Shown here piece by piece: positions 1,671 to 63,102 of a stretch of DNA of 64,000 nucleotides. Positions within the stretch are counted from its first letter, which is position 1; each line of letters opens with the position of its first letter. The stretch is from Octopus sinensis. Lineage: Eukaryota. The stretch lies in NCBI RefSeq assembly GCF_006345805.1, contig NC_043006.1, positions 36,828,001 to 36,892,000 on the forward strand. Direction: 5' to 3'. The notes under the pieces were generated by a model that had not been told where the DNA came from, ran no database searches, and saw only the letters and a list, made by a program, of their open reading frames with translations. The translations under genes and the position numbers were made by a program.

Positions 1671-2708
1671 TATATATATATATATATATACACACACATA
1701 TACATACATACATACAGACATATATATATATATGTGTGTGTATAAAAAAGATAATGCAGTGTTTTGAGGGATCTATGACTGTTGTTTCCAGCAGTTTCAC
1801 TGACTATGTGTTCTAGCAGTGGTTTAAACTGCAGGATGGTGTTTGAGATGATGATGATGATGTGTTAGATGTGGGGGTGTAACAAGTTTAGTTATGGTGC
1901 AGTTGTAGTGAAAAAGAAGATTAATGAAAAAATAAAAAAATAAAAAATAAATAGAAAGAAATTTGAATAAGTATGTGGTGCCATTGCTTAGCAACAAAAG
2001 TTGTATATTTACAAGATGTGCTCTATATTACACAAGATATGTTGTATATGGTTAGATATATACAGGGATAGTGTGTGACATTTTTCAGACTTTGGTTTAT
2101 AGTTTTGGCTTATTTGAGTTGCTGTGGAGTGGGTGAGAGATTTCTTTTCTCCTGATAGGAATAAATCCTTTATCCACCCTTGCCCAGACCAACACCAATA
2201 CTCTGAAAATGATACTCTGGAATCTCTACTCCCTCTACCATCACCCCATCTTCACTAGTGTGTGTGTGTGTGTATGTACGCACACACGTGCACACATGTG
2301 AGAGAGAGAAAGAAGGAAAAAAGATAAACAGCTGTTTATGTGAACAATCATGCCACAGTGGCTAAGTTGTACTGGGTGGGTAGAGGAAACCGGTGGTGAT
2401 GGTAGTGGTTATGATAAAATGAAAGGTGGAGATTAAAAATAAAATTTTGACAAAAAGAGGAGGAGAGGTAGGCGTGGTAGTATTGGTATGGTTGTTATTG
2501 TAAATTTTGTTTTTGTATTTGGTTTGCAAGATTCTTGATGTGAATTCATGTGTTGAAACAAATCTTGCCATGTCTTGGGAGGGTTGTTATAACAACAACA
2601 ATACACAGGTTCAGTTCCACCTCTTTATTGTTAGTCACTTAGTTATATATCTAACCAACTAACTAATCAGTTGTTTGTGTAATGTGTTGGTTAAACAATC
2701 AATTGGTT

Positions 2709-2930
2709 CATTATTTACATTTGTCAGATATTTGTCCTCATCTTGTTTGTTGTTGACACAACATTTCGGCTGATATACCCTCCAGCCTTTAACAGGTGTC
2801 CTGGGGAAATTTCAAACCTGGGTTCTCATTCCTAAGATATTTTTCAATGTTATCATTATTCAGGTCACTGACTGGAATCAAACTCGGAATCTTGGGGCTA
2901 GTAGCCTGCGCTCTTAACCACTACGCCATG
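2709..2930 (-). mobile_element. tRNA-headed SINE with hammerhead-like motif
   Basis: Minus strand: A box TGGCGTAGTGG, B box GAGTTTGATTCC, then GACAC-CTGTTAA-A-GGCTG..CAGCC-GAAA-TG-TT-GTGTC (2755-2800). Confidence 0.75.
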
Positions 2931-2965
2931 TGAATAATAATAATAATAATAATAATAACAACATG

Positions 2966-3135
2966 GAGAAATACCTTAGGAATGAGAACCCAGGTTCAAA
3001 ATTTCCCCAAGACACCTGATGAAGGCTGGAGGGTATATCAGCCAAAACATTGTGTTAACCACAAACAAAATGAGGACAAATATCTGTCAAATGTAAACAA
3101 TATACATAATTCTTATTCTCTTAAATATAGAACTG
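2966..3135 (+). mobile_element. 5'-truncated inverted copy of the hammerhead SINE
   Basis: GACAC-CTGATGA-A-GGCTG-GAGGGTATAT-CAGCC-AAAA-CA-TT-GTGTT at 3011-3056; head-to-head with 2709-2930. Confidence 0.75.
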
Positions 3136-3499
3136 AATCAATTGATTGTTTTTTTAGTTCAAGTTCTTTCACTGGTGTTCACAGTGACCTTTTTAGTGAT
3201 TTACTGACATCCCCTATCTCTGCAAGGCCTGCTCTGTGACTTGGAAACTGATTGATTGTTTAACCAACACATTAAACAAACAATTGTTTAGTTGCTTGGT
3301 TAGATATTTAACCAGTTGGCTAACAATAAGAAGTGGTATTGAACTAGTGTGTATTATTATTATTATTATCATTATTATTATACCGACTCTCCCAACACAA
3401 GTGTTATTGTAAAGCAATAGTTAAATTTGGTAGAGATACGCATACATAAAAAGTATATTAATACATGACTGGTGTCAATATAAGAAGCATAATATGTTC

Positions 3500-3693
3500 T
3501 GTCTTGGGAGGGTCATTATGCCAGTATCATACACACAATGGTTCTATTTCACTTCTTTAATTTATTTTTTTCCATTTTGTCAATTGGTTAACTATTTCAC
3601 CAGTTAACTAATCAGTTGTTTGACTAATCATTCAAAGAAATTAAATAGAACTAGTGTGTGTATATTATTTGCATAATGACCCTCCTGAGATAC
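3500..3693. mobile_element. MITE
   Basis: TIRs TGTCTTGGGAGGGTCATTATGC / GCATAATGACCCTCCTGAGATACA. Confidence 0.65.
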
Positions 3694-3749
3694 AACAAAA
3701 TGTCTTTCAACACACAAGTTCACATCAAGACTCTTGCTGGCCAAATCAT

Positions 3750-4117: not shown

Positions 4118-4879
4118 TGACCAAATACTAAAACAAAGTCTAGTATTGTTGTTATCATTTCAGTCCAGGTTATCTTGGGATTAAGTAGTCTTATAAATCA
4201 CTAAGTATTTGAGTCATAACCATCCAAACCCCTTCTGCTTTTCAGTTGTCATGTATCTTGGATTATGTCATCCAAAGTCCTGTCAGCAATTGTGTTTGTT
4301 TAAAGTGAATGTTCCCTACTCTCACATGTAAAGCTTTGTGCCAATGTTAGAAATTAAGATTATTATTTTTTAAGGTGACAAACTGGCAGAATCTTTTGGG
4401 TATCAAAAATAAAAAGCCTTGTGGTATGTCTTGCAGCTGTTTACATTCAGAATTTGAATTCTTCTGAGATCAACTTTGCTTTGAGTACTAGTCAGATACT
4501 AGGGTTGATGGTAACAGCTAAAATTCATCATCATCAACTCCTGGATATTAATCTCTCGAGTCCTAGAACTCATGGGGTCAGTTACTCAGTTTCCATGGCC
4601 TATAAGTGACTGAGGTCACAATATTCTCCCCAAACTAGATGCCAGGACCAGCATGAACTAAAGTGTTTTGACCAAAAACACAATGTGCAGCCTAGTCCTG
4701 GAATTAAAACTGATCTTGTGATTGAGTGCAAAAGCCTAACCACTGGGCCACATGCCTTTGCTAAAATTGCTGGCCTTGTGCAAACTTTTATTATTACTAT
4801 TGTTATTATTATTATTATTATTACTGTTTTTTCAATATTTATTTATTTTGTTTTACTTTTATTTTTCATTTTATTTTAG

Positions 4880-5559
4880 GTGAAACCAATTCAGTTGCCA
4901 AAGTCCTAGAGTCACAGGTTCGAATTCTATGCTGGGTGATGACCAACCCTAATAACATCAGAAAGAAGGCAATACATGTGAATGCAACATGGGGCCGGCG
5001 TTGCAACATATTGCTGTTCATGAGTTCTGCCGATGAACCTGTCAACTTGCCGATTGTGAAACTGCCAGTTTCAGAAGGCAGAGACAACCTATGGGCAAAA
5101 ACTAAGGAAGCTTTCAAGTATGTCTACAAACATCACATAAACAACTACGATTGGTTCTTCAAGGCAGACGATGACACCTATGCTATCATTGAAAACCTGC
5201 GGCATCTGCTCAGTGAGCATGACCACAACTCACCGATATTCTTTGGACGCAGGTTTAAGCCTTATGTGAAGCAAGGCTACATGAGTGGTGGTGCTGGCTA
5301 TGTGCTGAGTAAAGAGGCTGTGCGAAGGTTCATTGAGAATGGGCTCAACAACAAGAGTATCTGCCGTTCTGATAATGGTGGGGCTGAGGACGTGGAGATG
5401 GGAGCCTGCCTTGAGAGGGTTGGTGTCAAAGCCGGGGACTCACGGGATATCATGGGACGAGAACGGTTCCACCCTTTTGTACCAGAACATCATCTCATAC
5501 CAGATATTCTTCCAAGGGGGATGTGGTACATGAGTTTCAATTTCTACCCTGTAAGGCAG
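4880..5559 (+). CDS. C1GALT1: Core 1 beta-1,3-galactosyltransferase (T-synthase), large catalytic exon
   Basis: TTTTAG|GT acceptor and CAG|GTAAGA donor; translation VRILCWVMTNP..TWGRRCN..LWAKTKEAF..DWFFKADDDTY..FGRRFKPYVKQGYMSGGAGYVLSKEA..AEDVEMGACL..ERFHPFVPEHHL, typical of GT31 C1GALT1. Confidence 0.96.
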
Positions 5560-6320
5560 GTAAGAACCATTATTTTTATTAAATTTTTTCATAACTGTGT
5601 GTGTTTTTGTATATTAAAAAAAATGGTGTTAAAATCAAGTTTTTAAATGCATAAAAAATAACAAACATTAACTGAATAATGAATACAATACATTCTTGGA
5701 ATTTCCTCATTATCATTTTATGACTGGTTTCTATCCTGGAACTGGTTGGACAGTTGATCCATCATCATGTAAGTCCGGCTGTAGTTAGACATGAATATAG
5801 ATATATTTAACTACATGATTTTCATAGGATTACAGCTGTTTCACAACCTTCTTAGAAATTATGTGTACATGTTTGCATTAATGTGTGTGCTTGGAATTCT
5901 ACAATTGTATATTCACAAATTAATGCAAATAAAGAATGCCGTTGATGTAACAATAGGGTTCTGATGATTTGATGAGCTGACTGCATTATACAATTTGCCC
6001 TCCCTTCTTTTCTGTTCCCCTTTTATTTTTAATGATGTGTGATCTGAGGGAAATTGGGCTGTTATTTTTCACAGGTCAAACAACTACATAACTTTTAACT
6101 CTTTTACTTGTTTCAGGCATTGGACTGTGGCCATGCTGGGGCATCACTTTGAAGGGTATAATTGAACAAATCAATCTCAGTACTTATTTTAAAGACTGGC
6201 ACTTGATTTATCAGTCTATTTTGTCAAATCGCTGATTTACAGGGATGTAAACAAACCTGCACCAGTTGTCAAGTAGTGTGATGGACAAACACAGACTCAA
6301 AGAGTCATATATATATATAT

Positions 6321-7125: not shown

Positions 7126-9285
7126 CAGGATATATATGTATATATATACATATACACAGCATGCTTCCACACAGTTTCTGTCTACCAAATTCACTTGCAA
7201 GGCATTGTTTGGTCCAAGCTATAGCAGAAGAAACTTGCCCAAGATGCTGTGCAGTGGGCCTGAACCCAGAACCACATAATTACTAGGTGAACTTTGTAGT
7301 CACACAACCATAACATGGTGTAAAAATCAGTTTGTTGACACTTGATATTTATTTGCCATAAACACCATGTAAACTACTCAAAAACACAGGCTTTTTCTTA
7401 GTTTTGTATTTCTTTTAAAATTACACACAAATCCATCAACTTGTCCTCCTCAATCAATGCTCCAGCAATAGCCTTACTGTTATATTTGCCTGGCATGTGA
7501 CTTTATTTGATATTATCTGTTTGTAGTGAATCGATTACATTATAGCAAAATGTTTTATGATAATTGTGTAAATCTCCCATATGTTATATTTATCTTTTGT
7601 TCTGTTTTGCTTTGGTTTATGATATACTGTAGTTTTTATCTATTTGCATAATGTCACCTGATTGAAATTTCTATGCAAGTAACTGAATTTACTTAGTAGT
7701 TAATAAACAAATTTCAAATTCTCACTATATTGACCATAGTCAGTTATTATAGCAGTGTTAGTTGTTATTGTATAGTAAAACAAGGCAATGAGCTGGCAGA
7801 ATTGTTTCTGACTGGAAAAAATACTTAGTGACATTTTATATGTCTGTTTTGAGTTCAATTTCTACCAAGATTGACTTTGGCTTTCACCCTTTTGGGGGGG
7901 TCACTGAAATACATACTAGTTGAGTACTGGGATCAATGTAGTTTACTAGTCCCCTCCTTGCAAATTTCAGGCTTTATGCCTATAGTAGAAAGGATTATAA
8001 AAGAAAACAAGAAAACATTTAATTCCAGTTTGTTTGGCACACGCATAATTTAGGGTTCATACATGAAAGCTGTTTTTTTAATTTATATATTGGAGGCAAA
8101 GTGGCCGAATCCCTTTTGAATGTTGGGCTTGACAGAGGCAAAGTGGCCGAGTTCCTTTCGAGTATTTGGCTGAGTTCCTTTGGAGCACTGGGCCTCATGG
8201 AGGCAAAGTGGTTGAGTTTCTTTTGAGTGTTGTGCCTCATGGAGGCAATGGCTGAGACCTTTGACATTAAGTCATGCTTGATAAGAAGGCCCATAAAACT
8301 GAGCAAAATTGCAGTCGTGACAGATATCGGTGTTGCACAAATTGGCACCTGTGCCGGTGGCATGTAAAAGCACCCATTACACTCTCGGAGTGGTTGGCAT
8401 TAGGAATGGTATCCAGCTGTAGAAAACCATGCCAAATCAGACTGGAGTGTGGTGTAGCCTTCCAGTGTGCCAGCCTGGTCAAACTGCCAACCCATGCGAA
8501 CATGGACAACAAACATTAAATGATGATGGTGGTGATGATGAATTAATAAGATACCTACCTGGGTTCAAAATCCCTATTCCTTTACATTCTATCTGTGCGT
8601 GTGTGTGTGTGAGAGAAGGTACATGGTTTAGTGGTTAGGATATTTTGTTCACAATCATAAGGTTGTGAGTTCCATTCCTGGCATCCTGTTGTGTACTTGA
8701 GCAAGACACTTTATTTCACTTTGCTTCAGTCCACTCAACTGGCAAAAATGAGCTGTACCTGTAATTACAAAAAGTCCTGGGTTCAGTTTGTTTGACTAAA
8801 GGCAGTGCTCCAGCATGGCCACTGTCAAATGACTGAAACAAATAAAAGAATGTGAATACATACCATTGTCTAGACATGATGTGGTGGTTGTAAATGAGCA
8901 TGATCGTTATACAATCGAGGCTATTCATTTCCAGGAAACTGTATGGAAGCCTGCCATGTATATTTTTTTTTTACCTGACTTTATTATTCTTTCTCCTTTC
9001 TTTCCTCATCCTCCTCCCTCTGCCATGTCTACCACCTCCTCCTCCCTTATCTTTTCCCATCACCACCACCATCTGTGGGTAAGAAGTAATATATCAACCA
9101 CCTTAGCCAATCGATGGTCTGTTTAACTATCCCTAGTTTACCTGGGAATATTTTTAAAAAATTCTTTTAAATAAAAAAGTAAAATTTTTTTAATTAAAAA
9201 AAAGTTTTTTTTTTTTTTGAAATGTCATATCCTTTTATTTTGTCTTGTTTTTTTAATGTTGTTTCTTTCTTCTTTCTGCCTGCAG

Positions 9286-9612
9286 GGTCCTGACTGCTGC
9301 AGTGACTATGCTATTAGTTTTCACTATGTACCTCCCAACATGATGTACGTGCTCGAATACATGGTTTATCATCTTAAACCGTTTGGTCTACAGAATGAAT
9401 GCCTTGCTTCAGACAAATCCGACACTGCTGTTCAACGTCTTCCTCCGTCCAAAACTAAAAAAATTAGTACCACTAGTAGTAAAACCATTAAGAGTGATGA
9501 TAAAAATAATAATAATATTAAAAGTGATAAAAACTCTAAGAGTGACACAAAAAAACGAACGCCTAACGCTGCAAAAAACAAACCAAGTTCAAAGGTAGGA
9601 AACAAGAGCTAG
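9286..9612 (+). CDS. C1GALT1: C1GALT1 terminal coding exon
   Basis: Polypyrimidine tract and CAG|GGT, phase 0 matching the donor at 5559; [34 protein letters not shown] is the conserved C1GALT1 C-terminus; TAG at 9610-9612. Confidence 0.95.
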
Positions 9613-11824: not shown

Positions 11825-12370
11825 TGAAGGTGAGTCAAAAAGTAATGTCATTTTGTTTAGGACTGGTATAATTACCAACACAGGAACATGTATCATACAT
11901 CAAAATGAAGCTGGTCCTCTGTGGATCACATCCCTGCTTCTCAGCATAGTCACCGTTTCTCTCAATAGCAATGTCCCACCTTTGAATGAGAGCATGTATC
12001 CCTGTCCCGTAAAATTCTGTTGACTGTTCTTTGGGCCACTTCTTCTCTATAGTTTTCACTTCCTTCTCACCGGAATAATGTTTGCCTCTCAAACCCTTTT
12101 CCATGGGGTTGAAGAGAAGATAGTCCAGTGACGAGGAAGTGAAAACTGTAGTGAAGAAGTGGCTTAAAGAACAGTCAACAGAATTTTGCAGGGCAGGGAT
12201 ACATGCTCTCATTTGAAGGTGGAACATTGCTATTGAGAGAAACGGTGACTATGTTGAGAAGTAGGGATGTGATCAGAGGACCAGCTTCATTTTGATGTAT
12301 TACACATGTTCCTGTGTTAGTAATTATACCTGTCCTAAACAAAAGGGAATTAGTTTTTGAGTCATCCTCG
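11825..12370. mobile_element. Foldback mariner derivative made of two inverted transposon 3' ends
   Basis: Arms of about 250 bp are reverse complements; each encodes the mariner C-terminus ([36 protein letters not shown]). Confidence 0.85.
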
Positions 12371-13323: not shown

Positions 13324-13751
13324 TGTGCCGAAAGAGATCAAAGAGGAGTCCCAAAAGAGATCAAAGAGGGTGCCGAAAGAGATCAAAGAGGAGTCCCGAA
13401 AGAGATCAAAGAGGGTGCCGAAAGAGATCAAAGAGGAGTCCCGAAAGAGATCAAAGAGGAGTCCCGAAAGAGATCAAAGAGGGTGCCGAAAGATATCAAA
13501 GAGGAGTCCCGAAAGAGATCAAAGAGGGTCCCGAAAGAGATCAAAGAGGGTGCCGAAAGAGATCAAAGAGGAGTCCCGAAAGAGATAAAAGAGGGTGCCG
13601 AAAAAGATCAAAGAAGGTGCCAAAAGAGATCAAAGAGGAGTCCCGAAAGAGATCAAAGAGGGTGCTGAAAGAGATCAAAGAGGAGTGCTGAAAGAGATCA
13701 AAGAGGAGTCCCAAAAGAGATCAAAGAGGAATCCCGAAAGAGATCAAAGAG
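13324..13751 (+). repeat. Purine-rich minisatellite, alternating units of about 21 and 23 bp
   Basis: (GTG or AGTC)-CCGAAAGAGATCAAAGAGG repeated about 19 times. Confidence 0.95.
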
Positions 13752-15794
13752 TGGACATTTATTTTTTAATCACTACAATTGTTTGCATGCAACGTAGTTC
13801 TCTAGATGTGCAGGTACTTGATTAAGAAACTATTTCCCTGCATTATGAGATCTAGTTGTGTTTCCTCAGGTGATATGTATATATTGTCTCTGTAAATTTA
13901 AAATCCTCGGCTTCAAGAACATTCTATCTCTCTGTCGTGGCCTTAATTTAGTAGTACTCACAAAGCCTATCAGGGTATGTTGTTGGTGAAGGGCAGTTGG
14001 CAAACTGCTTTGAATGCGTAAAGGTAGTGGGATGGTGATTCTCATACTCTTAAAGTGGTTGCCGTTTTAAAGCGATTGGTATTTTATTTCTTTGTACTGT
14101 TGATTTGTTCTTCATGGTTGGTTACACATGATTCTCCTTAGCTGGCCTTTAAGATTCAACACTCAGACACATACACGCATATATGCGCGCGCGCACGCAC
14201 ACACACACACATATATACATATATAAAATCTACACACACATATACATACAGATATATACACACGCTCACATATACAGATATGTATGCGCACTCACGTACA
14301 TATATATAAGCACACCTACACTCACTCGCATATACATACACAGATGCTCGCATGTGCATACACACATGTATACATATCTACTTACACACACACACGCACA
14401 CCCACTCACACCATACATATAAATATATATATTCACTCACAAATTAAAAAAAGAGTAGCTTATTAGCAATTAAATAAAGGCGATTTTATAGAGGTCAAAA
14501 AAGTGACAGATGGTACTGACTAGCACAGTTTTTGTTAAAATAACTCAAAGCCACAAGAGCACTGAACTTAATATGACTGATAAAGAGAAGTAAGTCCCCA
14601 GCGTGCATAGCCGGATCGCAATTTTGGATTTTGATGCAGGCCATCTTAATCTTCATCAGCGACTCTTAAAGCCTAGAGTTAAACACGACTGCCTCTATCA
14701 GTCTTACAAGAAAAACCGTTGAAAACGTGCTGATTTTCAAAACGGTAAAAGTGTAAACAATAAATTAAAAAGTGGGGCTTATTAGCAATTAAAGCATAAA
14801 GGCAAAATTAATAGAGGTCACAAAAGTGACTATATATATATATTTTCTCTCCTTGTTTTTTCTGTGTCCCTTTCTGTAGAAGAGCGTAGGCTTGAAACGT
14901 AAAAGACTTTTTCTATTCCTGAGCGTTATCCTAATACACTTGTTTGTTTTGTACACCACTTGTCTTCGTCTTTTGTTTTTTTCGTAAACTCTCTCTCTCT
15001 CTCTATATATATATAATATATATATTATATATATATATATATATACATATATATATAATAGAAATATTAAAATTACTAAGTCTCTCTAAAAGAGAACAAC
15101 GGCAGCGTTCCCGGAAAATATTAGTTATCGCCATACTAATATGGCATTCTTATAAAAATAAGAAAAAAGCTGACCGCTTATTAGCTCCATGAGGCCATCG
15201 CCTTAAGTTAGCTATTTGATACACAAACTGTATCCATATAACCTTTGAACAAGGGAGGTCAGTCGCTCCACACTACTTGGCCGGCAGCTACAGACGCGTT
15301 TCGGGGTATTGCCCAGTTATATACATATAGATATGGTACATATATAAACAAGGCATGAGAAAGTGCATGTTTGACCGCTAAATCCACAAGTTTTTTTATT
15401 TTCTCTGTTTATGTCCTCGTGTTCCTTTCTGTTGAAGAGCATAGGCTCAAAACGTAAAAGACTTTCTCACCTTCTCGAGCGTTAAACTAATACACCTGCT
15501 TGTTGTTTATACACCTGTCTTCGTCTTTTGCTTTTCTGTTAATTTCAACTATATATATATATATATATAAGTTCAGCAAAACAATTTAGATTCAAATGAA
15601 TATGGTACTTAATTTAGATGCACCAGAATTTTTTATGGTATTACCCATAAAATTATGTGGGGTGATTATAACCAAAAATAAGCAACAAGAATGGATCCGG
15701 TAATTTAGTACAATTGTTTCATTCTATAACAATTTATTAAAGCTGCAAATATTACAGCAAATATAATATGTCAAGTAATCTTCAGCTAATTTCA

Positions 15795-16062
15795 TATAGG
15801 TTTTCCAATAATGTAAAGTTCTCAAATCAATTAGTAACATCCTAGAGAGTGTAAATACACCGATAAAGTTGTAGATATGAGTTTCAGGAACTTGAAGTAG
15901 GATGCCAAGCAAACCAAGATTAAGTTCATATATGTTTTCCAACAATGTAAAGTTCTCAAAACAATTAGTAACATCCCAGAGAAGGTAAATATACCGATAA
16001 AGTTGTGGATATGAATTTCAGGAAACATGAAGGATGCCAGTCAGTCAAGATTAAGTTCACAT
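15795..16062. repeat. Two-copy tandem duplication, unit about 135 bp
   Basis: TTTTCCAA.AATGTAAAGTTCTCAAA.CAATTAGTAACATCC..CAAGATTAAGTTCA occurs twice. Confidence 0.8.
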
Positions 16063-16074
16063 CTAACTGTTGCA

Positions 16075-16552
16075 AGAAAAAATTTCTTTTCAAAAGATTT
16101 TCAAAAAGTTTTTCCAAAACTTTGGTGAAAAGTTTCGAAAAACTTTTTCAAAAATTTTTGGGGAAAATTTTCTAAAAGTTTTTGAAAAATTTTTGAAAAA
16201 TTTTACAAAAATTTTGGGGAGATTTTTTCGAAAAATTTTCCAAAAATTTATGGGGAAAGTTTCAAGAAATTTTTGAAAAATGTTTGGGGAAAATTTTCAA
16301 AAAGTTTTTCCAAAACTTTTGGGGAAAATTTTCAAAAGATTTTTCAAAAAATTTTTGAAAAATTTTTGTGGATAATTTTCAAAAGATTCTCAAAAAATTT
16401 TTCCAAAATTTTGGTGAAAAGTTTCGAAAAACTCTTTCAAAAATTTTTGTGGAAAATTTTCAAAAGATTTTTACAAAATTTTTGTGGAAAATTTTTCAAA
16501 AATTTTTCAAAAATTTTGGGGGAAAATTTTCAAAAAACTTTTCAAAAATTTG
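16075..16552. repeat. Degenerate A/T-tract satellite (TTTTCAAAAATTTTTGGGGAAAA)
   Basis: Direct reading. Confidence 0.85.
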
Positions 16553-19553: not shown

Positions 19554-19786
19554 TATATGCATCACGAAATCTGCCTGAATGTACCTGTAAATATTTTGTT
19601 TTAAAACGGTGTTGATGATTTTTATCAGTTAAAACAATATTCCTTTGACCCTTTGTGGCTAATTACAAAATGGGCACATACACACACATTCATCATCATC
19701 ACTTCATTATGATGATGGGAGATGAAGGTCTTGAAATGTGTATAGAGAGTATTTAAGAATACCACTGTTTCACACCGCACATAAAG

Positions 19787-20030
19787 TACATTATTTACAT
19801 TTGACGGATATTTGTCCTCATCTTTTTTGTTGTTAACACAACATTTCAGCTGATATGCCCTCCAGCTTTCATCAGGTGTCTTGGGAAAATTTCGAAATTT
19901 CCCCAAGACACCTGATGAAGGGTGAAGGGTATATCAGCCGAAACGTTCTGTTAACAACAAACAAGATGAGGACAAATATCCATCAAATGTAAATAATGTA
20001 CATAATTCCTCATCTCTTAAATGTAGAACT
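19787..20030. mobile_element. Palindrome of two truncated hammerhead-SINE copies
   Basis: Arms mirror around TTCGAA (19891-19896); hammerhead motifs at 19835-19880 (-) and 19907-19952 (+). Confidence 0.8.
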
Positions 20031-22309
20031 ACACATAAAGTGATTATAAAGAAATAAGAAATATCCTTAATAAAAAGATCTACTGAAACAACTGTATGAA
20101 AAGAAGGGTGAGACTTCACAGTTTTGTCCTGTTTGCCTTTGTTGGACTGATGAAGGATAGGCTGAAACATGAAAGTTGCTTCCACCTCTCATCTTTTATG
20201 CACACTACAAAAAGGATTGAGTAATCCTTTAGTTTAATGTTTGTTTAATTGTTTTTACAATTTGACATAAAAACTATATATATATATATAATATTGTTTT
20301 TGCAATTTGACATGAAAACAATACACACACACACACACACAGATACACACAAGTTTGTGTGCATGTGTATACATACATGTATCTGCGTAATGTGTGTTTT
20401 CAATATGCATGTCTGCATGTTGTGCTGAACATTGAATGTATCAAAGCTGTTGCTTGGCTTGGCTGTTCTCATTTTCAGGTTGTGTTTTTTATACTCATTC
20501 AATCTCTTCTACTACATCAATATATGTATAATATAAATGAACATGTGCAAAAGAAGAGAAAATTATACAACTGCACGAGAGTTTTGTAGTTGTACAGCAA
20601 TATTTACTTTGTACTAAGTTTTTTGTTGTTTTGTTTTTTAATCATTAACCAAACATTTTGCTGGTGCTCCACCAGATTTGTTTTGAGTTAACTAATATAG
20701 TTTAAGATTGATTTCAATCTTAGAAGGGGCATGTGTCCTTCTGTTTTCCATTACAGTTGCTAACCTTTAAACCCAACCTCAAAATGTTTCTACATCTACC
20801 TATGTGAATATATATGGATAAGAAAAGATCTCACCCTACTAAACATAAGTGTATGTGTATGAAGGAATGGTTTATGGTTAAGTAGTTTGTTTTGCAACCT
20901 TATTATTTCAGATTCAGTCCCAATGTATGGTATCTTGGGCAAGGGTCTTCAACTCTAGCTTCAGGTTGACCAATGGCTGATGGGTGAAATTCACTAGATT
21001 GAAAGACACACACACACACACTCGCTCCATCAGTTGATCCGTCTGTCTGTCTGTCTGTCTGGCAGGTAGGCATCCATCAAAACAGACTGGAGTCTAGTGT
21101 AGCTCACTGGCTTACCAACTCCAGTCAAACTGCCTTGCTCATGCTGGCATGGAAAACATACTAAATGATGATGATGATATAAACAAAATAGCTAGTTTCG
21201 CTTTCACAGCATTAACTTGCATGTGACCTGAGCTGACCAATAGAGGCCTAACATCTAGAAGCCATGAATTTGTCTCATATTTTTAACTTTTCTTCAAATA
21301 TCGGATGGGGTGGATATATCCTACACATTAAAACAAAAAACTAAGTCATAAGAAGCTGAGTCAAATTCTTACCAAAAATATATGTAACTTGAAAACTAGA
21401 TGTGTTGAGTACCAGTTTGTCTTCGCCCACACCATCATGTGTGTGTGTGTGTATATATATATATATCCAAATTGAGAGAGTGGTGCAGGTTCGACTAAAA
21501 TTCCTCAAGGCGGTACCCCAGTATGGCCTCAGCATACTGACTAAAACAAATAAGCGGATAAAATCACACACATACGCCTGTCTTTACTCTGGCCATGACA
21601 GTCACACTTAAAAAATAAATTCTCTTTCAGAGAATTGAAAGTAATCCGGATGTTAGATGTGATAGTTAAAATACAAATAACCAAAACACTTGGTATGATC
21701 AACTATGACCATCACAACCTTTGTTTCGCTGACATCGTGTATCTTGGACTACAGTATGCAATTTATCTCCGGCTATGGATTGCCAAATCATTGCGTGAAC
21801 AATAAAAGAAAAAATCTCATGCTATTTGGTACCATACTGGTTTATGCCCCTTCTCCCTTTATACTTGCTGTTAATTTATCACCAGTTTCACCACTTCCAG
21901 GGTTGACTGTGAACACTTTATACAACTCGCAATGTACCCTGTCTGCTGCTAGTTGCAGAACACTTCAGTGAAGATAGATGCTAACACTTCTGGTATATAA
22001 AAAGTAATCACATCACCGAAATCTCGAAGTTATGAGATAATACATGATTATTTCAAAACAATGTGAATAAATAAGCATTACATTTGACAGTATTAAAAGG
22101 TTAAGACTATCCTTCAGCTATGTTCGTAATGTAAAAAAAAAAAAATTATTGAATGCCATAACCAGGAATATAGTGTTCGTTATAGAACCGGTTTTCAATC
22201 GGGGTTCATATAACATTTTGGAAGGGTCTATGCTATGAAATTAGTAAATTAGGGTTCTCCAGTATTTTAAGGGACCATGAAAAGTTTTAACTATATGCAT
22301 TACATAGGT

Positions 22310-22383
22310 GTCTCTGTGGCGTTATCAGTTAACGTGTTCGGCTGTTAATCAAAAGGTTGGTGGTTCAAGCCCATCCAGGGATG
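22310..22383 (+). tRNA. tRNA-Asn(GTT), probably a pseudogene
   Basis: GTCTCTGTGGCGTTATCAGTTAACGTGTTCGGCTGTTAATCAAAAGGTTGGTGGTTCAAGCCCATCCAGGGATG aligns to the canonical metazoan tRNA-Asn with about 10 substitutions, mostly C>T/G>A. Confidence 0.8.
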
Positions 22384-30792: not shown

Positions 30793-33700
30793 TGTTACGG
30801 ACCACCCTCGCTCAGTCGAACGGAGAATTCGTCACACAGAGGGGACCCGGTGGGGATGGCAGCGACGAACACGACAACCGGCGACCAGAGATATAACGAC
30901 AACAACAAACAGGAAGAGATACAGAGAGAGACGGCGGAAGGCAATTGGCTACATTTAACAACAGTTTATACAAATATTACAACAAATACAATGTGATACA
31001 TCAGGTACATCAAAGTAAACACAAGCAACAGAATCAACAGCATGCAAATGCAATATACAGTTCAGAGACAACAGTTCAAATCCAATTAAAACAAATAACG
31101 TTCACATTAACGATACAGTTCAATACATTAGAGTCTTTCTCCTTCTTTCTTTAACAGTTCTTTCTTTTTCCTCTCTCCTTCTTTCTCTTTTTTTCCAACA
31201 CATTAATTCTTTTTCCTTCTTTTTTTCACATATCAAAACATAATTAAACATATACCGTCAACAACAGCCAAGTGCCTTCATACCGTAGTCCCTCTCTCTT
31301 AGCTCTGTAATACTCTCTGCCTGTCTTCCTCTTTCACATTCTCTATCATTCTATCGCTTGTCGGCTCCTCAGATTCCCTGTCTGTCTTCCTCTTTCACGT
31401 TCACTGTCATCGCAGAAACTACCTGTCACTAACTCGCTCTGTCCCCAACTGTGTAGAGCTGCCGGCCGACTGTGTTTACAGCTCACAGTTCCTCCAAAAG
31501 TAGGTCGCAACCAACTGTCCTTAAATTGAACCATTCATAACACTATCTCCTACCTAAGCTTTGTCGACCCGACAAAAGCACACTAAACTCGTACCTCCGA
31601 GGGCGAGCTCCATCAGATGTTCCAGGAACTGGAGGTGTCCTTGGGTAGTTTCTCCTCCGGGGGTCTCGCCTGCCACGGCCACCACTTCACCACCGGCCAC
31701 AAGTTGGCATCTTCTCTCTGCGGCTTGGGTAACATCTCCGCCAAGGCTGCGAGACCTCCTACGAGCCGCCTACAATGGGCGCACCGTCTGGGGGAGTTCC
31801 TTAAATCCCTCACACAAGCAGGGTCCGGCTAATCCTTCACAGTGGCCACCTTCCTCAGGGCTCTATACCCCACGTAGCACCTTACTGTGCCGTCTCCATT
31901 CTGCACAACTAAGGCCGACGACCAGGGACCGTTTCGCCCTTTCACTGTTCCCTGTCGCCGATATCTCTTCTTTCGCTGCCGTACTGGGACCATCCTCCGG
32001 CCCCGCTGCCTCCTCGAGCGACGACCGCCCGGGTCGATGAAACGTTCTGCGTTTTCCACCAACACCCGAGTGCCAACCAAGCACCGGCGACTCCCTGTAG
32101 ACCGCCTCCGCAACTGCACAGGTAGACCACCATCTCCAACTGCCTCACTGTATTGGCAGAACTGGCCCTGCCGCTGGTTCACCGTCTGGCGCAGTTCCAC
32201 GATTTGCCCTCTACAAATCGCCTGCGCAGCCTTCAATAAATCGGCCGACCCAACCAGCGCTCTGTCAACTTCTGCCTCTACCAGGGTCCAGCCGACCCTC
32301 ACTTGGGCTTTCACTAGGCACTGCCTGTCGGGCTCCACTAGCCCCAAACAACCATCAAACACAAAGCTCACCCAACACTGGAGCAGTCTTCCTGGTCTTG
32401 GTAGACCTACCACCGTTCGCAGCCGTCTCGCCTCGTCACCAGGCTTGGTCCTCTTCCTCACCAGCTTCTGCACCGAAGGCTTCACAACATGCAAGTTCGT
32501 CCGACAGTCCTCTTGAGCGCCAAGAGACAGGGGCTCAGACACCAAAGGACTCACACACGGCACATCAACCGCAGCGACCACCCCACACACAGCCGGCTCT
32601 TCGGACTCAGCGACATCAGCTCCAGACTTCACCAGCTCTTCGTCCTGAGTTCCGGAGGACAGGGGTCGAGATGCCAAAGGCTCCATACACGGAACAACAG
32701 CAGCAGACAACACACATTCAGCAGGCTTTTCAGGCTTCTCCACATCAGACTTAGCAGCATTCGCCTCAGTTTCCGCAACACGGGGTTCTTCCAACCCACA
32801 CTCTTCACTATCCACTTCACTTGATGGGCAATCTCCGCCCACATGACCACTCTTATCCCCGGTCCAACACTGATCCTCCAGGGCTGACCCATCCATAACC
32901 TCAGGCTCTTCCTGATCTGCCCACAGGCCCTGTCGCCTCTTGTCCATCCTTTCCAAGAATGTGTTTGTCTGCGTCATCTGGCCCCTCAACATCTCTACAA
33001 TCAAGGCAAGCGAGATCTCTTCCTCTCCAGTCTGGCTGCCAGCTCGTGCCTCCATCGAACCCATAGCGAACAGCCGATCGACCGCAGCAATCAGGACAAT
33101 CCCACTTCTGACACCAGTTGTTACGGACCACCCTCGCTCAGTCGAACGGAGAATTCGCCACACAGAGAGGACCCGGTGGGGATGGCATCGGCGAACACGA
33201 CAACCGGCGACCAGAGATATAACGACAACAACAAACAGGAAGAGATACAGAGAGAGACGGCGGAAGGCAATTGGCTACATTTAACAACAGTTTATACAAA
33301 TATTACAACAAATACAATGTGATACATCAGGTACATCATAGTAAATACAAGCAACAGAATCAACAGCATGCAGATGCAATATACAGTTCAGAGACAACAG
33401 TTCAAATCCAATTAAAACAAATAACGTTCACATTAACGATACAGTTCAATACATTAGAGTCTTTCTCCTTCTTTCTTTAACAGTTCTTTCTTTTTCCTCT
33501 CTCCTTCTTTCTCTTTTTTTCCAACACATTAATTCTTTTTCCTTCTTTTTTCACATATCAAAACATAATTAAACATATACCGTCAACAACAGCCAAGTGC
33601 CCTCATACCGTAGTCCCACTCTCTTAGCTCTGTAATACTCTCTGCCTGTCTTCCTCTTTCACATTCTCTATCATTCTCTCGCTTGTCAGCTCCTCAGATT

Positions 33701-33973
33701 CCCTGTCTGTCTTCCTCTTTCACGTTCACTGTCATCGCAGAAACTACCTGTCACTAACTCGCTCTGTCCCCAACTGTGTAGAGCTGCCGGCCGACTGTGT
33801 TTACAGCTCACAGTTCCTCCTTTTTAAGGGGTGTTTTTCAACGAACTTTCTTTCACCTGTAAGGGTCGCAGGTCTCCCCAGAACTAATCAATCCACCTGA
33901 ATCTGACAGGACAATGGATTTATTCCAAAAGTAGGTCGCAACCAACTGTCCTTAAATTGAACCATTCATAACA
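30793..33973 (-). mobile_element. Non-autonomous Gypsy-type LTR retrotransposon
   Basis: LTRs 30793-31542 and 33119-33973 (TG..CA), 4-bp TSD ATAC, PBS TGGTGTCAGAAGTGGGAT complementary to the tRNA-Leu 3' end, PPT AGGTAGGAGATAG next to the left LTR. Confidence 0.95.
31829..33064 (-). CDS. Retroelement ORF (411 aa from first ATG): gag-like with decayed CCHC knuckle fused to RT N-terminal remnant
   Basis: CWTGDKSGHVGGDC knuckle variant; GPWSSALVVQNGDGTVRCYVGYRALRKVAT resembles Gypsy RT SPWSSP.V.V.KKDG..RFCVDYR.LN. Confidence 0.65.
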   Translation of the reverse strand: MGSMEARAGSQTGEEEISLALIVEMLRGQMTQTNTFLERMDKRRQGLWADQEEPEVMDGSALEDQCWTGDKSGHVGGDCPSSEVDSEECGLEEPRVAETEANAAKSDVEKPEKPAECVLSAAVVPCMEPLASRPLSSGTQDEELVKSGADVAESEEPAVCGVVAAVDVPCVSPLVSEPLSLGAQEDCRTNLHVVKPSVQKLVRKRTKPGDEARRLRTVVGLPRPGRLLQCWVSFVFDGCLGLVEPDRQCLVKAQVRVGWTLVEAEVDRALVGSADLLKAAQAICRGQIVELRQTVNQRQGQFCQYSEAVGDGGLPVQLRRRSTGSRRCLVGTRVLVENAERFIDPGGRRSRRQRGRRMVPVRQRKKRYRRQGTVKGRNGPWSSALVVQNGDGTVRCYVGYRALRKVATVKD

Positions 33974-46750: not shown

Positions 46751-47949
46751 AATCAAAAGAAGGTTGAAGTATATCACTGGATCATCGGGCGATATGAAAT
46801 TTACCGAGAAGAAAAATTTTCAGTATTTCCATACATTTCTCAAACATATTTCCGAAGTTTATCCCGCCTAAATTCCAATGGTGTACATTGCGGAGGTTTC
46901 ACATGTAAAAAAAAATGAACACTTTAATTTCACTCTGTCATATTACAGCGGAAAATTACTCTGTATGAATCAATTTTGGAGTTTCTTCATAGAAAATTTG
47001 AAATGAATTATGTTTTTTCTCCATATTCTTAATCTCCATGTTGTTCCACGTCGATTGGAAAAAAGAAATTCAAAAATAGGTTAAAATTTTAAAATTTGGG
47101 TTGGGTTGGGGAGGGGGAATTTAAAATCTTGAAAGAATGGTTTTTTTGCATTTTCAGAATCTCCATCATCGAAAACATAGGAATCCGCAGAAAAACTTTC
47201 AAAAAAAAAAGGAAAAAAAAAAAGGGTGGATTTTTCGTACCGGTGTACTTGTAAACTTTTAGACAGCGGGATGAAGTGGCGAGGGGTGTATGAATCAGTT
47301 TTGGAGTTTCCTCATAGAAAATTTGAAATTAGCTATTATTTCACCCCCCCCCCCCCATACGTTGATCAATTTTGATATTAACACGTGCCTGATTTTCACT
47401 AAAGAAAAAAAAATCTGATTTTTTGTGTGGAATCAAGCACCCTGACCTTCTAATATGATGCAAATCCTTTATTTTTGTTCGCAAGAAAGGTGGGGGGAAG
47501 GGGGAATCCCCTCCATCCCGGAATCATTGAAATTCTTTTTTTTTTTTCGTTGAATGAATTCCTGTGACCTCCTAATATGCCGCAAAACCCTTTAGGGGGG
47601 GTCCGAAAAACGGGGTTGGGTGAGGTGGAAGCCTCGGAAATATCCCCCCCACCTCCATTGATCTTTTCACCTGCACGAGTATGTGCTGTGGTTTGTTGCG
47701 ATGCTCTTATTTTTACTGTATTGAAATTTTTTTACGTAGGATGTGTGCGGTGCCTAGTAGTGCTATTTTCTGTTTGTTATATATATACTTGTTAGTCCTG
47801 GTGTTTTTGTTATGTATTTGTCTGAATATTTTTTTATCATACCTAATGCGCCTACTATGATAGGAATTGTTTCTGTTTTTAGACTCCACATTCGAGTTAC
47901 CTCTATTTCTATATCTTTGTATTTTGAAAGTTTTTCCGTTTCTATTAGA

Positions 47950-48825
47950 GTAGGGGTGTCAAACTAATTTTAGATTACGGGCCACATATCAACCCAATTT
48001 GATCTCAAGCGGACCGGACCAGTAAAATCATGGCATAAGAACCTATAAATAACAATTTCAAAATTTTCCCTTTCTTTTAGTGTAAATAAGTACATTCTGA
48101 AAATGTTCATGTTTAAAGAACTATTTGTTTTTGCAAAACATTGAACAAGTAAAAGTGAGAAATGTTAGAGAGACTGAGTGGTCACACTGCCTTGTAAATG
48201 TATACAATTTATAAATTAAAAAAACATTTTGAAAAACATTTAAAACGACTTCACTTTTTATCATTTATTTTCAATATGCTCCTGAAACTTGGCATCTTTT
48301 CTCCTTCACAAGTGTATCAATATCAGGTGTCAAATCCTGAGTAGCAGCAAATTTCAAGATGTCATTTTGGTGCTTATGTGTGAGCTTTGAGCGCAGAATT
48401 GTTTTATTGATGTTCAGTACAGAGAAACCTTGTTCACAAAGGTAGGTAGTCCCGAACATGCACAAAACTTTCGCAGCAAGGGCTGTTAGTTTGGGGTACT
48501 TTGGCGAGAGATACTAATAAAATGTATGTAAGTCCAGCGAGGAAAATTTGTTCTTCAACTCTGAATCACGCTGTAAGTCAACCATATCAAGTTGGATGTT
48601 GACGGCAGATCAGAGGCGTTAACTGTAAATGGCGAGCAAAAAACTGAAATCTGTCTCAAGTTCATCAAAAATCTGAAACCGTTGCTCAACCTCTCGCTGT
48701 AATCCCGTGATACTGTCTTTGTACCGATTCATGTCAATATCATCTGCGGTCGCAACCATATCTTTTAGACAAGAAAAATGAGCAGGGTGATCACCTGACA
48801 GTTGCGTCTCTCACAAAGTTAATGC
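47950..48825 (-). pseudogene. hAT (Charlie/SPIN-like) transposase C-terminal remnant with one terminus
   Basis: MFGTTYLCEQGFSVLNINKT..RSKLT..RCQVSG; terminus AGGGGTGTCAAACT. Confidence 0.85.
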
Positions 48826-48829
48826 TCCC

Positions 48830-50835
48830 AAAATCCCTGGAACATTCCTCTTCTAATGGAGATGGCTTTGGTTTTTTATGAGTCCCTCTTTTGTCTGGAG
48901 CTGTAGCACTGTCTGCCATTTATTCATGGAATGTTTTATATATTTTATGATTATTGGTGCTACCTTGTTCATGACTAGTGTTTCTTGGATCCCTGTGTGG
49001 GGAATACTACCAAAAGCCTTTCGGTACGCGATCCAGGCCATACTTAGATTCTTCTTCTTTCTGTGGCTGTTTTCAGTTATGGCTTTATTGATCAGTAGCT
49101 GATCTTTACAACCGTATGAGCCCTTGCAGCATCCCTTCTGCTCTTCTGGAAACAAGTTGCTTTCTTCCAGATGTTTGCTTGTTCTCTGCGATATTCTTTT
49201 ATACTTCAGGCACAAGGCCTGAATTTTTTCAAGTTGTCTGTAACTTTGAGGGTTTGCTGTTTCAGCGGATTTGGGAATTAGGATACTTTTCTCTCCTCTG
49301 AGCATTCAGTAGTTCATTAAATTTCTCAGCCAGCTTTTTATGGGTTCCTGTTAAGTATTTTAAACAGAAGTTGGGGATCTTGTGCTTAGGTGCCTTCCAG
49401 TTGCTTCGTTTTTGCAGTGCCTGGGTGACCTCTTCAGTTGTTATAGGGGTCCAAAGTTGTTCAGATGTTGTGTTCGTTGTTTTGATAGATCTTTGCTGAG
49501 GTTGTTCCTTCGCCGACCATATTTCTTTCCATAATTCGTTCACTTCTGCTGCATTGATCTCTATTTCATTTTTGGCAAGTTCCTGGTAGAATCTTCTGAG
49601 GTTGGAGCTGAACTCTTTGTTTTGTTCAAAGAAACGTTGGTGTTTCTCATACCGGCGGATACTTTGTGTTTTGGCGAGGATAATTTGCTTTAGCTGTTCT
49701 TTTACCTCAGATATGCCTTGTTCTGTAATTTTGTATTCATGTAGTATTTTTCTTCTCTTCTTGTTACTTAATAGTGTTGATTGTCTACTAGTTACATTAA
49801 AGATTGACAGATCCTTTCTCTTATTTTCTATTTTCTGAATATTGTTTATCTACAGGGTCTGTTTTGGTGGTGATATGCTCCTGTTTGGATGGGTTTTAGG
49901 GAGTATCCAGCTTCTTTTGTGATCATAGCAGCTGCTGCAATATTTAATATCATTTAGCCTGGTCATATTGACATTTGTTTCTGTGGCTATAAGTTCTATG
50001 ACGGCCAGGTTCATGCTATTTATTATTGATGTTGTTTTAGTATCAATTTTAATTTTTGGGAGGTACAATCGGTGGCCTATACTGAAATCTGTGGCTTTCA
50101 ATTCTTTGATTATACTCATTTTTAGAGTAGCATAATCATTAGTTTCGCCTTCACTGTTTCAAGGTTTTAGATTTGTTTCGCATTCCATCCCGTTTATATT
50201 TTTACCTGTGGTGTTCTGGTTTGGTGCATTTTGCTCATCATTATACATTCCTACAGTCTGGGTTTGTTGTCTTTCATTGCTTGCTTCTTGTTGGACATGC
50301 TACTCTGTCTTCGTATTTTACAGTCCCAGTACTTATGATATTATTTGGTACTGCTGTGTGGTTACTATCTACATGTTCCTGATGTATTTTCCCTTATAAG
50401 TGTTCGTTTTCTATTTCTGATATTTTTTTTATTTTGAGAATATATCTTCGTATGTTAGCTAGTTTTTTAGGATTCATTGCTTATCCTAATCTTTATATAG
50501 GTTATTTTCCTTCCAGATTTTATATGTATATGTTGTGTTTTCGTTCTGTGAGTAGAGCACTGCTGTAAAATAAGCGTGTAGAATTGAAATATATTCCTCG
50601 CGTATCCATTTATGCTTTTTAAAATTTTATTTGCGGGACGTTAGGAATAACGTCCGGCCCTTTATTTTGATAGTCATTATTTCATAGGGTACCGGTCCGT
50701 TCATTTCTGGTGTTAAATGGTTTTGCACGTGTAGTTTTTCGTACTTTTCGTGTAACAAGTTGAAGTACGTACTCCCCGTTTGTTATCCTTGGGTTGAATA
50801 ATAACGTATTTAATTTATTTTTCATTTTTGTGCAT
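48830..50835 (-). pseudogene. R4/Dong-type non-LTR retrotransposon, 5' half with RT remnant
   Basis: [41 protein letters not shown] and SNWKAP; 5' end at (ATT)n. Confidence 0.85.
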
Positions 50836-50931
50836 ATTATTATTATTATTATTATTATTATTAGGCATTATCTTTAACGTCTAGAGATATGATAACTTGC
50901 CAGAGATGGTCATACTCGTCTACGTACGTGC

Positions 50932-50965
<34 letters not shown>

Positions 50966-50999
50966 AATTCATTTCTGATGTCTCAGAATGGAGTGTGAT

Positions 51000-52200
51000 A
51001 TCCAGCCTCAAGTAACTCTTCCAGGTGATTTCTTGTTTTGAAGTCTGGTGAGCACCCCCACTCATCTGCACCACCCAGAAGACTTCATTCCCGTGCCCCG
51101 TATGGCATAGCTGTTCCTGGACATGATTTTCTGCCTTCTGCTGCCGTGCATAACATCGTTGGAGATTTTTGCCGTTCTTATCACATGTACGATCTCCTTA
51201 AGCACTTGATTGTGTCTTCACCTGTATCTTCCTTGGGCTGGTGCTACTCTGCAGGAACTCAGAACGTGTTCCACTGTCTGTCTACTCCGGGCAGAATGGG
51301 CACTCAGGATTATCTGATTTACCCCCACTTCCCTAGGTTCGTATTCGTATGCAGGAAATCATAGACAGATCTGAAGATAAAACTTATTCTAAAATGTGCC
51401 ATATGGCACAAGTAGTTCCAGCTGAGACACTTCTAGAGTGGATCTTCCCACGTCATCCACTGGCCCGGTTGACTCTGCAGTATTGCCTTCCGGATTCTTA
51501 GGGCATCCTCTTCCTTTTTTTCACCTCCTGTAAAATAAGATTTCTCTTCATCTTTCTTTTGTTTTCTTAATACCAATTCATTTTTGTTACGCCCAGTCCC
51601 TGCCTATTGGCCTAAAGGCATTTCTTTGCTGTATCCATTTCTCTGATCGTACGGCTTTTCTTTGCTGCATCCACCACCTCCTAGACTTTCCATTTCCTAC
51701 CTGTCTTCAGTTTGGGCCGGATCGACCGGACGACCTTGTCTTTCGAGTCTTCAAACATGGCTAAAAGCCTTACTTTTCCAACTTACTATTCCTCGACGAT
51801 GGGTTTGAGAGGTAGCTCCAACCTGCCTGGCGACATGAGAGTGCAACATCAGCAAGACCTGGTGTGACACCCAGCCACTTCTTTGCGTACTTTTCTTTAT
51901 TTTGACCTCCATATCTCCACTGTATTAATGCTGATATCATAAATTAGCAGAGCCAGAGAAGCTTTATGATTAACATGAACTGAAAACACCAAAATCTCAT
52001 GCCTTGTATTTGCCAGAGAGGTCACACTGGTCTATGACCTGCAAACTTTTTACCACCATTTGTTTCGTTTCGGTCCCTCTTTTCGTATCTTTCAACGTGT
52101 TGTCCATACCATCTTCCAATACTTTTGACTAGTTCTTTTGCTGCAGTTGGGATATTTTGGTTGGCTACTGTGAACACGGCTAATTTCCCTTTCGGCAGAG
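51000..52200 (-). pseudogene. HERO-like REL non-LTR retrotransposon remnant
   Basis: Minus strand DSKDKVVRSIRPKLKTGRKWKV, RQGLG, TVEHVLSSCRVAPAQGRYR*RHNQVL. Confidence 0.7.
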
Positions 52201-62650: not shown

Positions 62651-62889
62651 CTGAAAAATAAAGAAGAGAAAATTGAGACTTACTCAAACAAATGAAGAAG
62701 CAAACAAGCCTTGTACATATACAATTAGGGCCTCACATATGTATTATACAGTAGTGAGTTGAAAAACTTGAAAACCTCAACAAAGGACTTAAGAAGACAT
62801 CTCCAACTGCAGGAAATTTTAAAATCTAAAAATAAAAACAAACAGACAAAGCAGCAAATAATTCAAATAAGTTTAATTAATGGTACGTT

Positions 62890-63102
62890 ATTTACATTAT
62901 TTACATTTGACGGATATTCGTCCTCATCTTGTTTGTTGCTAACACGTTTCTGCCAGCCTTCATCAGGTGTCTTAGGGAAATTTTGAACCTGGGTTCTCAT
63001 TCCTAAGGTATTATTATTATTATTATTATTCAGGTCACTGTCTGGAATAGAACTCGGAATCTTAGGGTTAGTAGCCCGTGCTCTCAACCACTATGCCATA
63101 TA
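62890..63102 (-). mobile_element. tRNA-headed hammerhead SINE, stem II partly deleted
   Basis: Same head and tail as 2709-2930; GACACCTGATGAAGGCTGGCAGAAACGTGTT. Confidence 0.75.

Follow-up and report, generated by a model that had tools for sequence, protein, structure and literature searches.

The insertion at positions 2709-3135 of a 64,000-nt stretch of the Octopus sinensis genome (the window: NC_043006.1, 36,828,001-36,892,000; genome 2.72 Gb) was found to consist of two copies of one repeat unit. The unit, which comprises a tRNA-like head, an AAT linker, a minimal type I hammerhead motif and a tail, is the roughly 270-290-nt terminal repeat (pseudo-long terminal repeat, pseudo-LTR) of an autonomous Penelope/Poseidon element encoding a reverse transcriptase (RT) and a GIY-YIG endonuclease; it is not a separate short interspersed element (SINE). 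The explanation that best accounts for all of the observations, and that is considered probable, combines this pseudo-LTR with a tRNA-type RNA polymerase III (Pol III) promoter, priming at two tail sites and ribozyme cutting of a minority of templates. A more specific proposal is made tentatively, and at somewhat less than even confidence: that an autonomous Penelope element took up a Pol III promoter of tRNA origin and lost its T runs so that Pol III transcribes it from end to end, and that a recurrent 3-nt scar in its copies is the trace left by hammerhead cutting in vivo.

The autonomous element that carries the unit

The C-terminus of a GIY-YIG endonuclease lay immediately upstream of the head in several of the 30 best genomic matches. 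Among 30 loci found with an RT-endonuclease (RT-EN) query, the query's own locus included, the head followed the stop codon of the open reading frame (ORF) in 25, and three of the remaining five kept the hammerhead and tail. A query comprising the 5' part of the ORF gave 44 matches, from which 20 loci were fetched. The hammerhead and tail ran into the ORF in direct orientation in 12 of these, and the head was present in three. Locus L046 provided a fourth copy with the head upstream of the ORF, and this copy is full-length. Pseudo-LTRs were found on both sides of the ORF, as a partial tandem, in L046, L069, L074 and L078.

The family majority, taken over the MAFFT columns of 49 long copies, contained a single 787-codon frame with DKG, YVDD and VY..PCSC..Y.GET motifs. 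An ATG within the unit, lying 48 codons ahead of the long tail site, is in phase with this frame. The predicted protein matched RVT_1 (E 3e-8), and its best named relative was an 836-aa Anolis carolinensis protein (53% identity), to which the GIY region aligned with E 3e-13 and the RT-EN linker with a single 1-residue gap. The Pfam GIY-YIG model gave no match to the protein fragment searched. The relative P0037 was 61% identical, and its N-terminus matched the start of the window ORF at 10/16 positions. P0037 and P0115 start with the same residues encoded by the hammerhead core and differ in the loop; the frame through the ribozyme is therefore old.

The original prediction had read the unit as a non-autonomous SINE that borrows a Penelope tail. 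Its proposal of mobilisation by Penelope machinery was borne out, and an RT + GIY-YIG partner sharing the tail, which it had suggested looking for, was found; this partner shares the entire unit, head included. A separate non-autonomous lineage that combines a tRNA head with a Penelope 3' end would fit the mostly SINE-like size of the head-bearing copies, the presence of the ORF directly upstream in only 5/29 head-selected loci, and the excess of first-look candidates for the unit (4,823) over those for the ORF 5' part (409). Solo copies with an intact promoter and a long tail could also be copied again. Such a lineage is nevertheless very improbable. The head occurs in the autonomous element at both ends, and no variant separates short from ORF-linked copies (77 and 42, respectively) when the number of sites is allowed for: the same variants were present in both, the lowest p among the 26 sites listed being 0.006, at a CpG. 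No other body was found downstream of the unit head in the 29 head-selected loci, and a head-profile search of 1.18 Mb recovered no other SINE with this head, other SINE heads scoring below 20 bits. A donor SINE for the head was sought in the same search and none was found. The unit was assigned as a pseudo-LTR, and not as a SINE, because the head is part of the autonomous element, the variants are common to both kinds of copy and no other SINE body carries the head.

A second Penelope-like family of this genome (L233-L262) is T-rich over a long 3' region, and the 2.77 kb examined matched neither a hammerhead nor the A/B boxes.

Insertions in the window

The features of the three insertions were as follows.

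2697-2708, plus strand: left copy of the 12-bp target-site duplication, 1 mismatch against 3136-3147
2709-2932, minus strand: arm 1, pseudo-LTR copy from the tRNA-like head (from unit position +4) to the short tail site
2755-2800, minus strand: arm 1 hammerhead, minimal type I; two core positions decayed, stems I and II fold (z -2.3)
2859-2932, minus strand: head derived from a tRNA, its A box at 2918-2928 and its B box, which has a CpG-type C>T change, at 2875-2883
2931-3135, plus strand: arm 2, a copy of the pseudo-LTR that lacks the head and runs to the long tail site, with AAT linker (2933-2961), middle part, hammerhead and tail
2982-3134, plus strand: ORF codons 1-51 (ATG at 2982), through the hammerhead, in frame with the 787-codon RT + GIY-YIG frame
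3011-3056, plus strand: minimal type I hammerhead of arm 2; G12 and G16.2 decayed
3136-3147, plus strand: right copy of the target-site duplication
19786-20030, both strands: second insertion, again of two arms: 19786-19896 on the minus strand, to the short site, and 19891-20030 on the plus strand, to the long site
19835-19880, minus strand, and 19907-19952, plus strand: hammerheads of the second insertion
62888-63107, minus strand: third insertion, head-to-short-site copy, plus a 10-nt long-tail-site stub on the plus strand
about 62940-62971, minus strand: damaged hammerhead of the third insertion; loop II deleted, and a 3-nt deletion at the cleavage site
63029-63101, minus strand: second tRNA-like head in the window

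The two unit copies at 2709-3135 face away from each other and constitute a single insertion, since the 12-bp duplication brackets both arms; the boundaries that had been predicted are thereby exact. The arms are joined with a 2-nt overlap, and the plus arm begins in the AAT run. In the second insertion the arms meet at a 6-nt palindrome, within a 10-bp duplication (19778-19787 / 20032-20041). The third is flanked by a 12-bp duplication with 1 mismatch (62872-62883 / 63107-63118). A genome-wide search with 2709-2923 returned the 100% self match together with the 4,823 first-look candidates. The hammerhead-like copies were present at all five positions originally listed, as judged by sequence and by within-window BLAST, as were the head with its A and B boxes and the AAT linker. 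None of the five copies is consensus-perfect, as had been observed: all are decayed in the catalytic core.

The 2709-3135 insertion is itself nested in an older inverted-repeat element (2589-2708 / 3246-3366, arms 83-86% complementary), probably similar to a miniature inverted-repeat transposable element.

The hammerhead motif

The motif comprises a 5-bp stem I, the core, one extra base, a 6-bp stem II and a palindromic stem III stub. It fits the description of minimal type I hammerheads of the Penelope pseudo-LTR kind, as had been proposed. With the core CUGANGA / GAAA / UH and its stems, 93.6% of 660 cells were paired in 60 copies, compared with 19-49% in slid controls. The stem III segment forms a 6-bp self-duplex of -3.5 kcal/mol. 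When folded in wider context, stem II was predicted at about 0.9 and stem I at under 0.1; the low value for stem I indicates that the active hammerhead fold is not the default. The first codons of the ORF overlap the hammerhead, which would probably cut a minority of templates.

Searching with the Rfam hammerhead models, one of the checks originally proposed, gave no match in the window at E<=1 and none to a good copy at E<=10. As neither Rfam nor ARAGORN (see below) gave a library match, the hammerhead and tRNA labels rest on motif and pairing analysis. Seven hammerhead motifs from distant Poseidon loci, which were selected for pairing, have the same core and different stems that still pair. 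The GUU triplet, previously described as a weak cleavage triplet, occurs in four of these seven and is no oddity. Covariation within the family is thin, with only 2/11 pairs changing on both sides, and the core is barely better kept than the flanks (4.0% against 5.3% among copies, a weak test since copies decay after insertion); both results count against the role proposed for the ribozyme. In its favour are the core shared by the distant motifs and the finding that the only frequent non-CpG core change among 161 copies was at the free position N7 (40/161), which marks a subfamily.

The tRNA-derived head and transcription

The family-majority head contains an intact A and B box consensus of the kind found in Pol III promoters. 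It was compared with 10 host tRNAs of six amino acids, a sample outside which Ser and Arg-ACG lie, and was closest to tRNA-Arg(TCT) (51/73 identical, z 7.2), with Ala next. The isotype of the parent tRNA is uncertain. ARAGORN reported no tRNA in the window and no proper tRNA from the head down to the 80% threshold, and the cloverleaf is degenerate. The octopus OK, OR1 and OR2 SINEs (Ohshima and Okada 1994) also have tRNA-derived heads; according to the descriptions available, by which alone they were compared, OR1 and OR2 are CORE-SINEs, in contrast to the Penelope body here. An Arg tRNA origin is reported for OR1/OR2.

Pol III terminates at runs of four or more T (T4). No sense-strand T4 run was present in the 2,685 nt of the family majority, compared with expectations of 4.9 from base shuffling (P 0.007), 2.7 from synonymous shuffling (P 0.04) and 4.5 from third-position composition (P 0.0025). 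T-ending codons before T-starting codons were depleted (15 vs 33, p 0.012). In natural copies of the family 33 T4 runs were observed and 164 expected. The controls were 46 of 79 Poseidon-type metagenome loci, namely those with longer matches; these relatives are 29-47% identical and too distant to date the capture of the head. They contained 281 T4 runs against 185 expected, or 71 against 68 in the 22 stretches of similar T content. Where sequence was present, no A/B box pair was found within 900 nt downstream in the 46 controls. The second Penelope-like family of the genome had 13 T4 runs in 1,428 coding nt, and an RLE-type long interspersed element (LINE) copy in the window had 7 per kb.

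The T4-free 2.7-kb element, together with the depletion of T4 in natural copies, suggests that Pol III transcribes the whole protein-coding element. The head would act as an internal promoter, RNA starting about 3-6 nt before the tRNA part, and Pol III would then read through the entire T4-free element. A working Pol III promoter in the head is judged likely from these sequence features; transcription of the element from end to end is given an even chance.

Several observations count against Pol III transcription. In two RNA sequencing runs of a related organism (about 6% of each), unstranded depth followed copy number, with no start peak in the unit; these reads are uninformative as to a Pol III transcript. 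The T4-free state represents one lineage and not 49 independent trials; G4 runs are likewise absent from the majority (P 0.03-0.27), and T4 is missing as well from two of the 46 control stretches, which are shorter and have 19-20% T. A 2-codon upstream frame begins in the A box. An RNA made by Pol III lacks a cap and serves poorly as a message, and the production of the protein is unexplained.

How copies end and insert

Two clusters of 3' ends were observed, one at the short tail site and one at the long site ~35 nt beyond. The inverted partial copies that had been noted in the window proved to be a general arrangement: 77 of 88 head-to-head pairs had one long and one short end (three loci being counted twice and a few pairings involving a 5' repeat). 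Flank words of at least 9 nt were shared in 63/88 head-to-head pairs, compared with 16/261 mismatched flanks. The subfamily marker was the same in both arms at 52/54 loci, where 18.5 discordant loci were expected. These results fit two cDNAs of a common source, one primed on each target strand, in line with the in vitro behaviour of the PAc element of Anolis carolinensis; their joining would be a further step. It is proposed that the element protein nicks both target strands 10-13 bp apart and that one cDNA is primed at each of the two tail sites. Priming in the first repeat would give SINE-sized copies ending at the RNA start, priming in the second would give long copies, and the two cDNAs would join head to head through microhomology.

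Arm junctions in L221/L222, L169 and L271 hold short pieces of the ORF 5' part, which shows that templates were switched between short and long RNAs. In a single case (L231, about 1466-1478) two telomere-like hexamer units were present at a head-to-head junction.

The 5' ends were scored in 115 head-bearing copies from tail-selected, head-selected, deletion-selected and random loci. They fell after +14 in 11 copies, between -14 and +14 in 75 and further out in 29. Thus 75 of the 104 copies reaching +14 end at the tRNA start, where about 11-15% would be expected at the upstream rate. Of these 75 boundary ends, 23 had no neighbouring arm, six had a direct neighbour and 46 were inverted, with the junction far from the palindrome described below in 24 of the 46. 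The full-length copies L046, L069 and L074 start at the same boundary. From these end positions, the boundary is likely to be the RNA start. Cutting by RNase P at tRNA +1 was considered as its cause and rejected, the acceptor stem being degenerate and many ends lying 1-7 nt upstream of +1. The cut is predicted to fall between +197 and +198, and only 7/255 arms begin in the surrounding positions (+195 to +199). Copy ends are therefore set by the two Penelope tail sites and the 5' boundary at the tRNA start, and not by the ribozyme as originally suggested.

A 5-bp palindrome lies across the 5' boundary, the commonest 5' end (-6) is the palindrome edge and fold-back junctions are frequent. This tells against a boundary set purely by the RNA start, and palindrome structure may contribute to it. 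Such features are also those expected of an ordinary Poseidon element transcribed by RNA polymerase II (Pol II), in which the head would be a captured passenger and the boundary would arise by fold-back or cDNA annealing at the palindrome. Many of the ends at the palindrome edge have a few fold-back bases, 311 and 219 RNA reads turn back at the palindrome, and the second insertion of the window is joined at another palindrome. Pol II transcription would explain translation more easily, and the available account of D. virilis Penelope describes a TATA-less, LINE-like internal promoter (PMC2377424). We regard this alternative as unlikely. Fold-back needs a cDNA that already ends at the boundary, and 53 of the 75 ends there either lack a neighbouring arm, have a direct one or are joined far from the palindrome. 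The three full-length copies share the boundary, and avoidance of T4 across 2.7 kb is not predicted by a Pol II transcript. The tRNA-type promoter is the preferred reading.

A deletion at the predicted cut site

In 23/229 copies, 3 nt were missing across the position where cleavage is predicted. At 123 other sites with 2-nt microhomology, deletions numbered 10/6,178, so that the rate at the cut site is ~60 times higher; at 14 sites inside the unit they numbered 8/2,545, and the cut-site rate is ~30 times higher. Exact matches across the genome gave 385 deleted and 3,002 intact forms. The deleted share was equal in the two subfamilies (11/46 vs 30/131). Deleted and intact arms were mixed in 18/25 multi-copy loci, although the arms share a source. 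Cleavage followed by RT jumping would leave the deletion in either subfamily and, as a rule, in just one of the arms, as was seen. The RT would copy the 3' cleavage product to its end, re-anneal the last two bases on the GU ending the 5' product, and so drop 3 nt. On this pattern, we lean slightly towards the deletion being a cleavage scar.

Slippage of the RT or of a DNA polymerase, at a short repeat beside a hairpin, was considered for this step and is held to be somewhat less probable than the scar. The cut site does contain a 2-nt direct repeat, the deletion rate elsewhere climbs with microhomology (0.02% to 0.3%), 2-nt deletions also occur at the cut site at a low rate, and a folded three-way junction could stall the RT without cleavage. 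The excess over both the 123 comparable sites and the 14 in-unit sites, among which hairpin edges and longer repeats were included, counts against slippage. All gap alignments touch the predicted scissile bond, and 5' ends rise just past it, with 20 in +195 to +214 compared with 7 in +165 to +194.

Other points argue against the scar. Two deleted arms were present in 7/25 multi-copy loci, and some deletions are possibly inherited. The deletion leaned to one loop variant in a first sample (p 0.002), though not in the larger sample, in which it had no diagnostic partner site. For PAc, the available text reports no RNA ends at the cut site and cleavage that is dispensable in vitro (PMC11167929).

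Family size and spread

A 16-nt tail motif had 14,432 exact matches in the genome, compared with one for the reversed control, so the unit is not a chance sequence. Calibrated counts from three longer motifs gave roughly 15,000-65,000 units, even though 20 random 10-kb stretches (200 kb) yielded a single unit copy. Sequencing runs under five organism labels carry the family, and contigs from two other organisms span the whole element. Long copies diverge by 4.5-8.4% from the column majority. It is possible that repeat databases already list the family, as a SINE or as a Penelope element.

In 140 copies the AAT linker ranged from 7 to ~1,300 nt (median 31), partly owing to other insertions, and the unit seeds AAT microsatellites. 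Because the PAc endonuclease is described as preferring ATT, the linker may, by analogy, be a self-target for the endonuclease.

Other features of the window

Exon-like frames of a glycosyltransferase gene (Fringe / Galactosyl_T) were found at 4765-5646 and 9175-9612, the 2709-3135 insertion lying ~1.6 kb upstream of the first. The stretch 3495-3697 is self-inverted, and one 540-nt self-inverted repeat and two tandem arrays occupy 11831-12364, 13325-13751 and 15787-16551. A tRNA-like match at 22310-22383 (Rfam RF00005, 47 bits) ends like the host tRNA-Arg(TCT) and is followed by an abundant SINE; it is likely a pseudogene or a SINE head. Direct repeats of 703 nt, 98% identical (30793-31495 / 33119-33820), surround a GC-rich stretch with a 481-codon minus-strand frame, and the whole (30793-33820) resembles a young LTR-type element without RT. 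A decayed LINE lies on the minus strand at ~47200-52000 (RT fragment, RVT_1 E 8e-5), with motifs that we take to be R4/Dong-like; it served as the LINE control for T4 runs.

Relation to known elements

Literature descriptions were compared as far as the accessible texts extend. Like PAc (Frangieh et al. 2024, PMC11167929), the octopus element has a single ORF with RT and C-terminal GIY-YIG and a hammerhead over the first codons. PAc also has two internal RT start sites in the ORF 5' part, an optional 30-40-nt tail, and cutting and extension of both strands (PMC11167929), traits that agree with those of the octopus element. An inverted 5'-truncated arm, with a tail of 30-40 nt at just one end, is a trait of the Penelope/Poseidon clade that the octopus copies show. 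It differs in that its promoter is described there only as 'likely in its pLTR', whereas the octopus element has a tRNA-derived head, and in that no trace of in vivo cleavage was found for it, whereas octopus copies carry the 3-nt cut-site deletion (PMC11167929). The 836-aa Anolis protein is the best named match and is not established as PAc.

The ribozyme itself is no different from the minimal type I hammerheads of Cervera and de la Pena 2014 (PMC4209133): it shares their short stem I, long stem II from G-C, extra base after A9, palindromic 15.2-16.2 and absence of loop 3, as well as their occurrence mostly as solo motifs of truncated elements. A tRNA head and a cut-site deletion are not described in the text available from that work. 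In the schistosome Sm-alpha / Sj-alpha repeats a Pol III promoter is likewise followed by a hammerhead in one short repeat; these repeats are non-autonomous, tandem and ribozyme-processed, while the octopus unit is part of a protein-coding element, is arranged head to head and has ends that are not ribozyme-set (PMC6765202). The TRIMp3 elements Cassandra, Helenus and Ajax (Kojima 2024, PMC10886601) also have a small-RNA-derived Pol III promoter in a terminal repeat. They are non-autonomous LTR elements with a primer binding site and polypurine tract, whereas the octopus element is Penelope-like and autonomous, its ORF spanning 2.5 kb. Non-LTR retrozymes (PMC7229834; bioRxiv 10.64898/2026.07.22.740005) are short hammerhead units related to Penelope pseudo-LTRs. 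Assignment to these was rejected, as they form head-to-tail arrays and octopus copies are solo or head-to-head and end at the tail sites. The words promoter and octopus are absent from the accessible text of bioRxiv 10.64898/2026.07.22.740005.

The only characterised Penelope promoter in the sources available is LINE-like (D. virilis, PMC2377424), and octopus repeat papers, in the portions accessible, mention Penelope and SINE as classes only. In the literature searched, from which repeat databases and supplements were excluded, no Penelope element with a tRNA-derived or Pol III promoter and no cut-site deletion was described. The hammerhead and the two-site tail are known Penelope features; an autonomous Penelope with a tRNA-derived head was not found in this literature.

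Promoter type and ribozyme function are both open questions for Penelope-like elements. On the scale of the genome, the pairing of a long with a short end, together with duplications of 10-13 bp, supports an insertion step that uses two primers. Should the cut-site deletion be a cleavage scar, it would be genomic evidence that these weak ribozymes cut in vivo, which was not seen by RNA-seq for PAc. An autonomous element driven by Pol III, if such it is, would blur the division between SINEs and LINEs, playing both parts itself, and would raise the question of how uncapped RNA is translated. It would also offer a direct route from a Penelope end repeat to a SINE-like family, with tens of thousands of copies that pipelines likely label as SINE.
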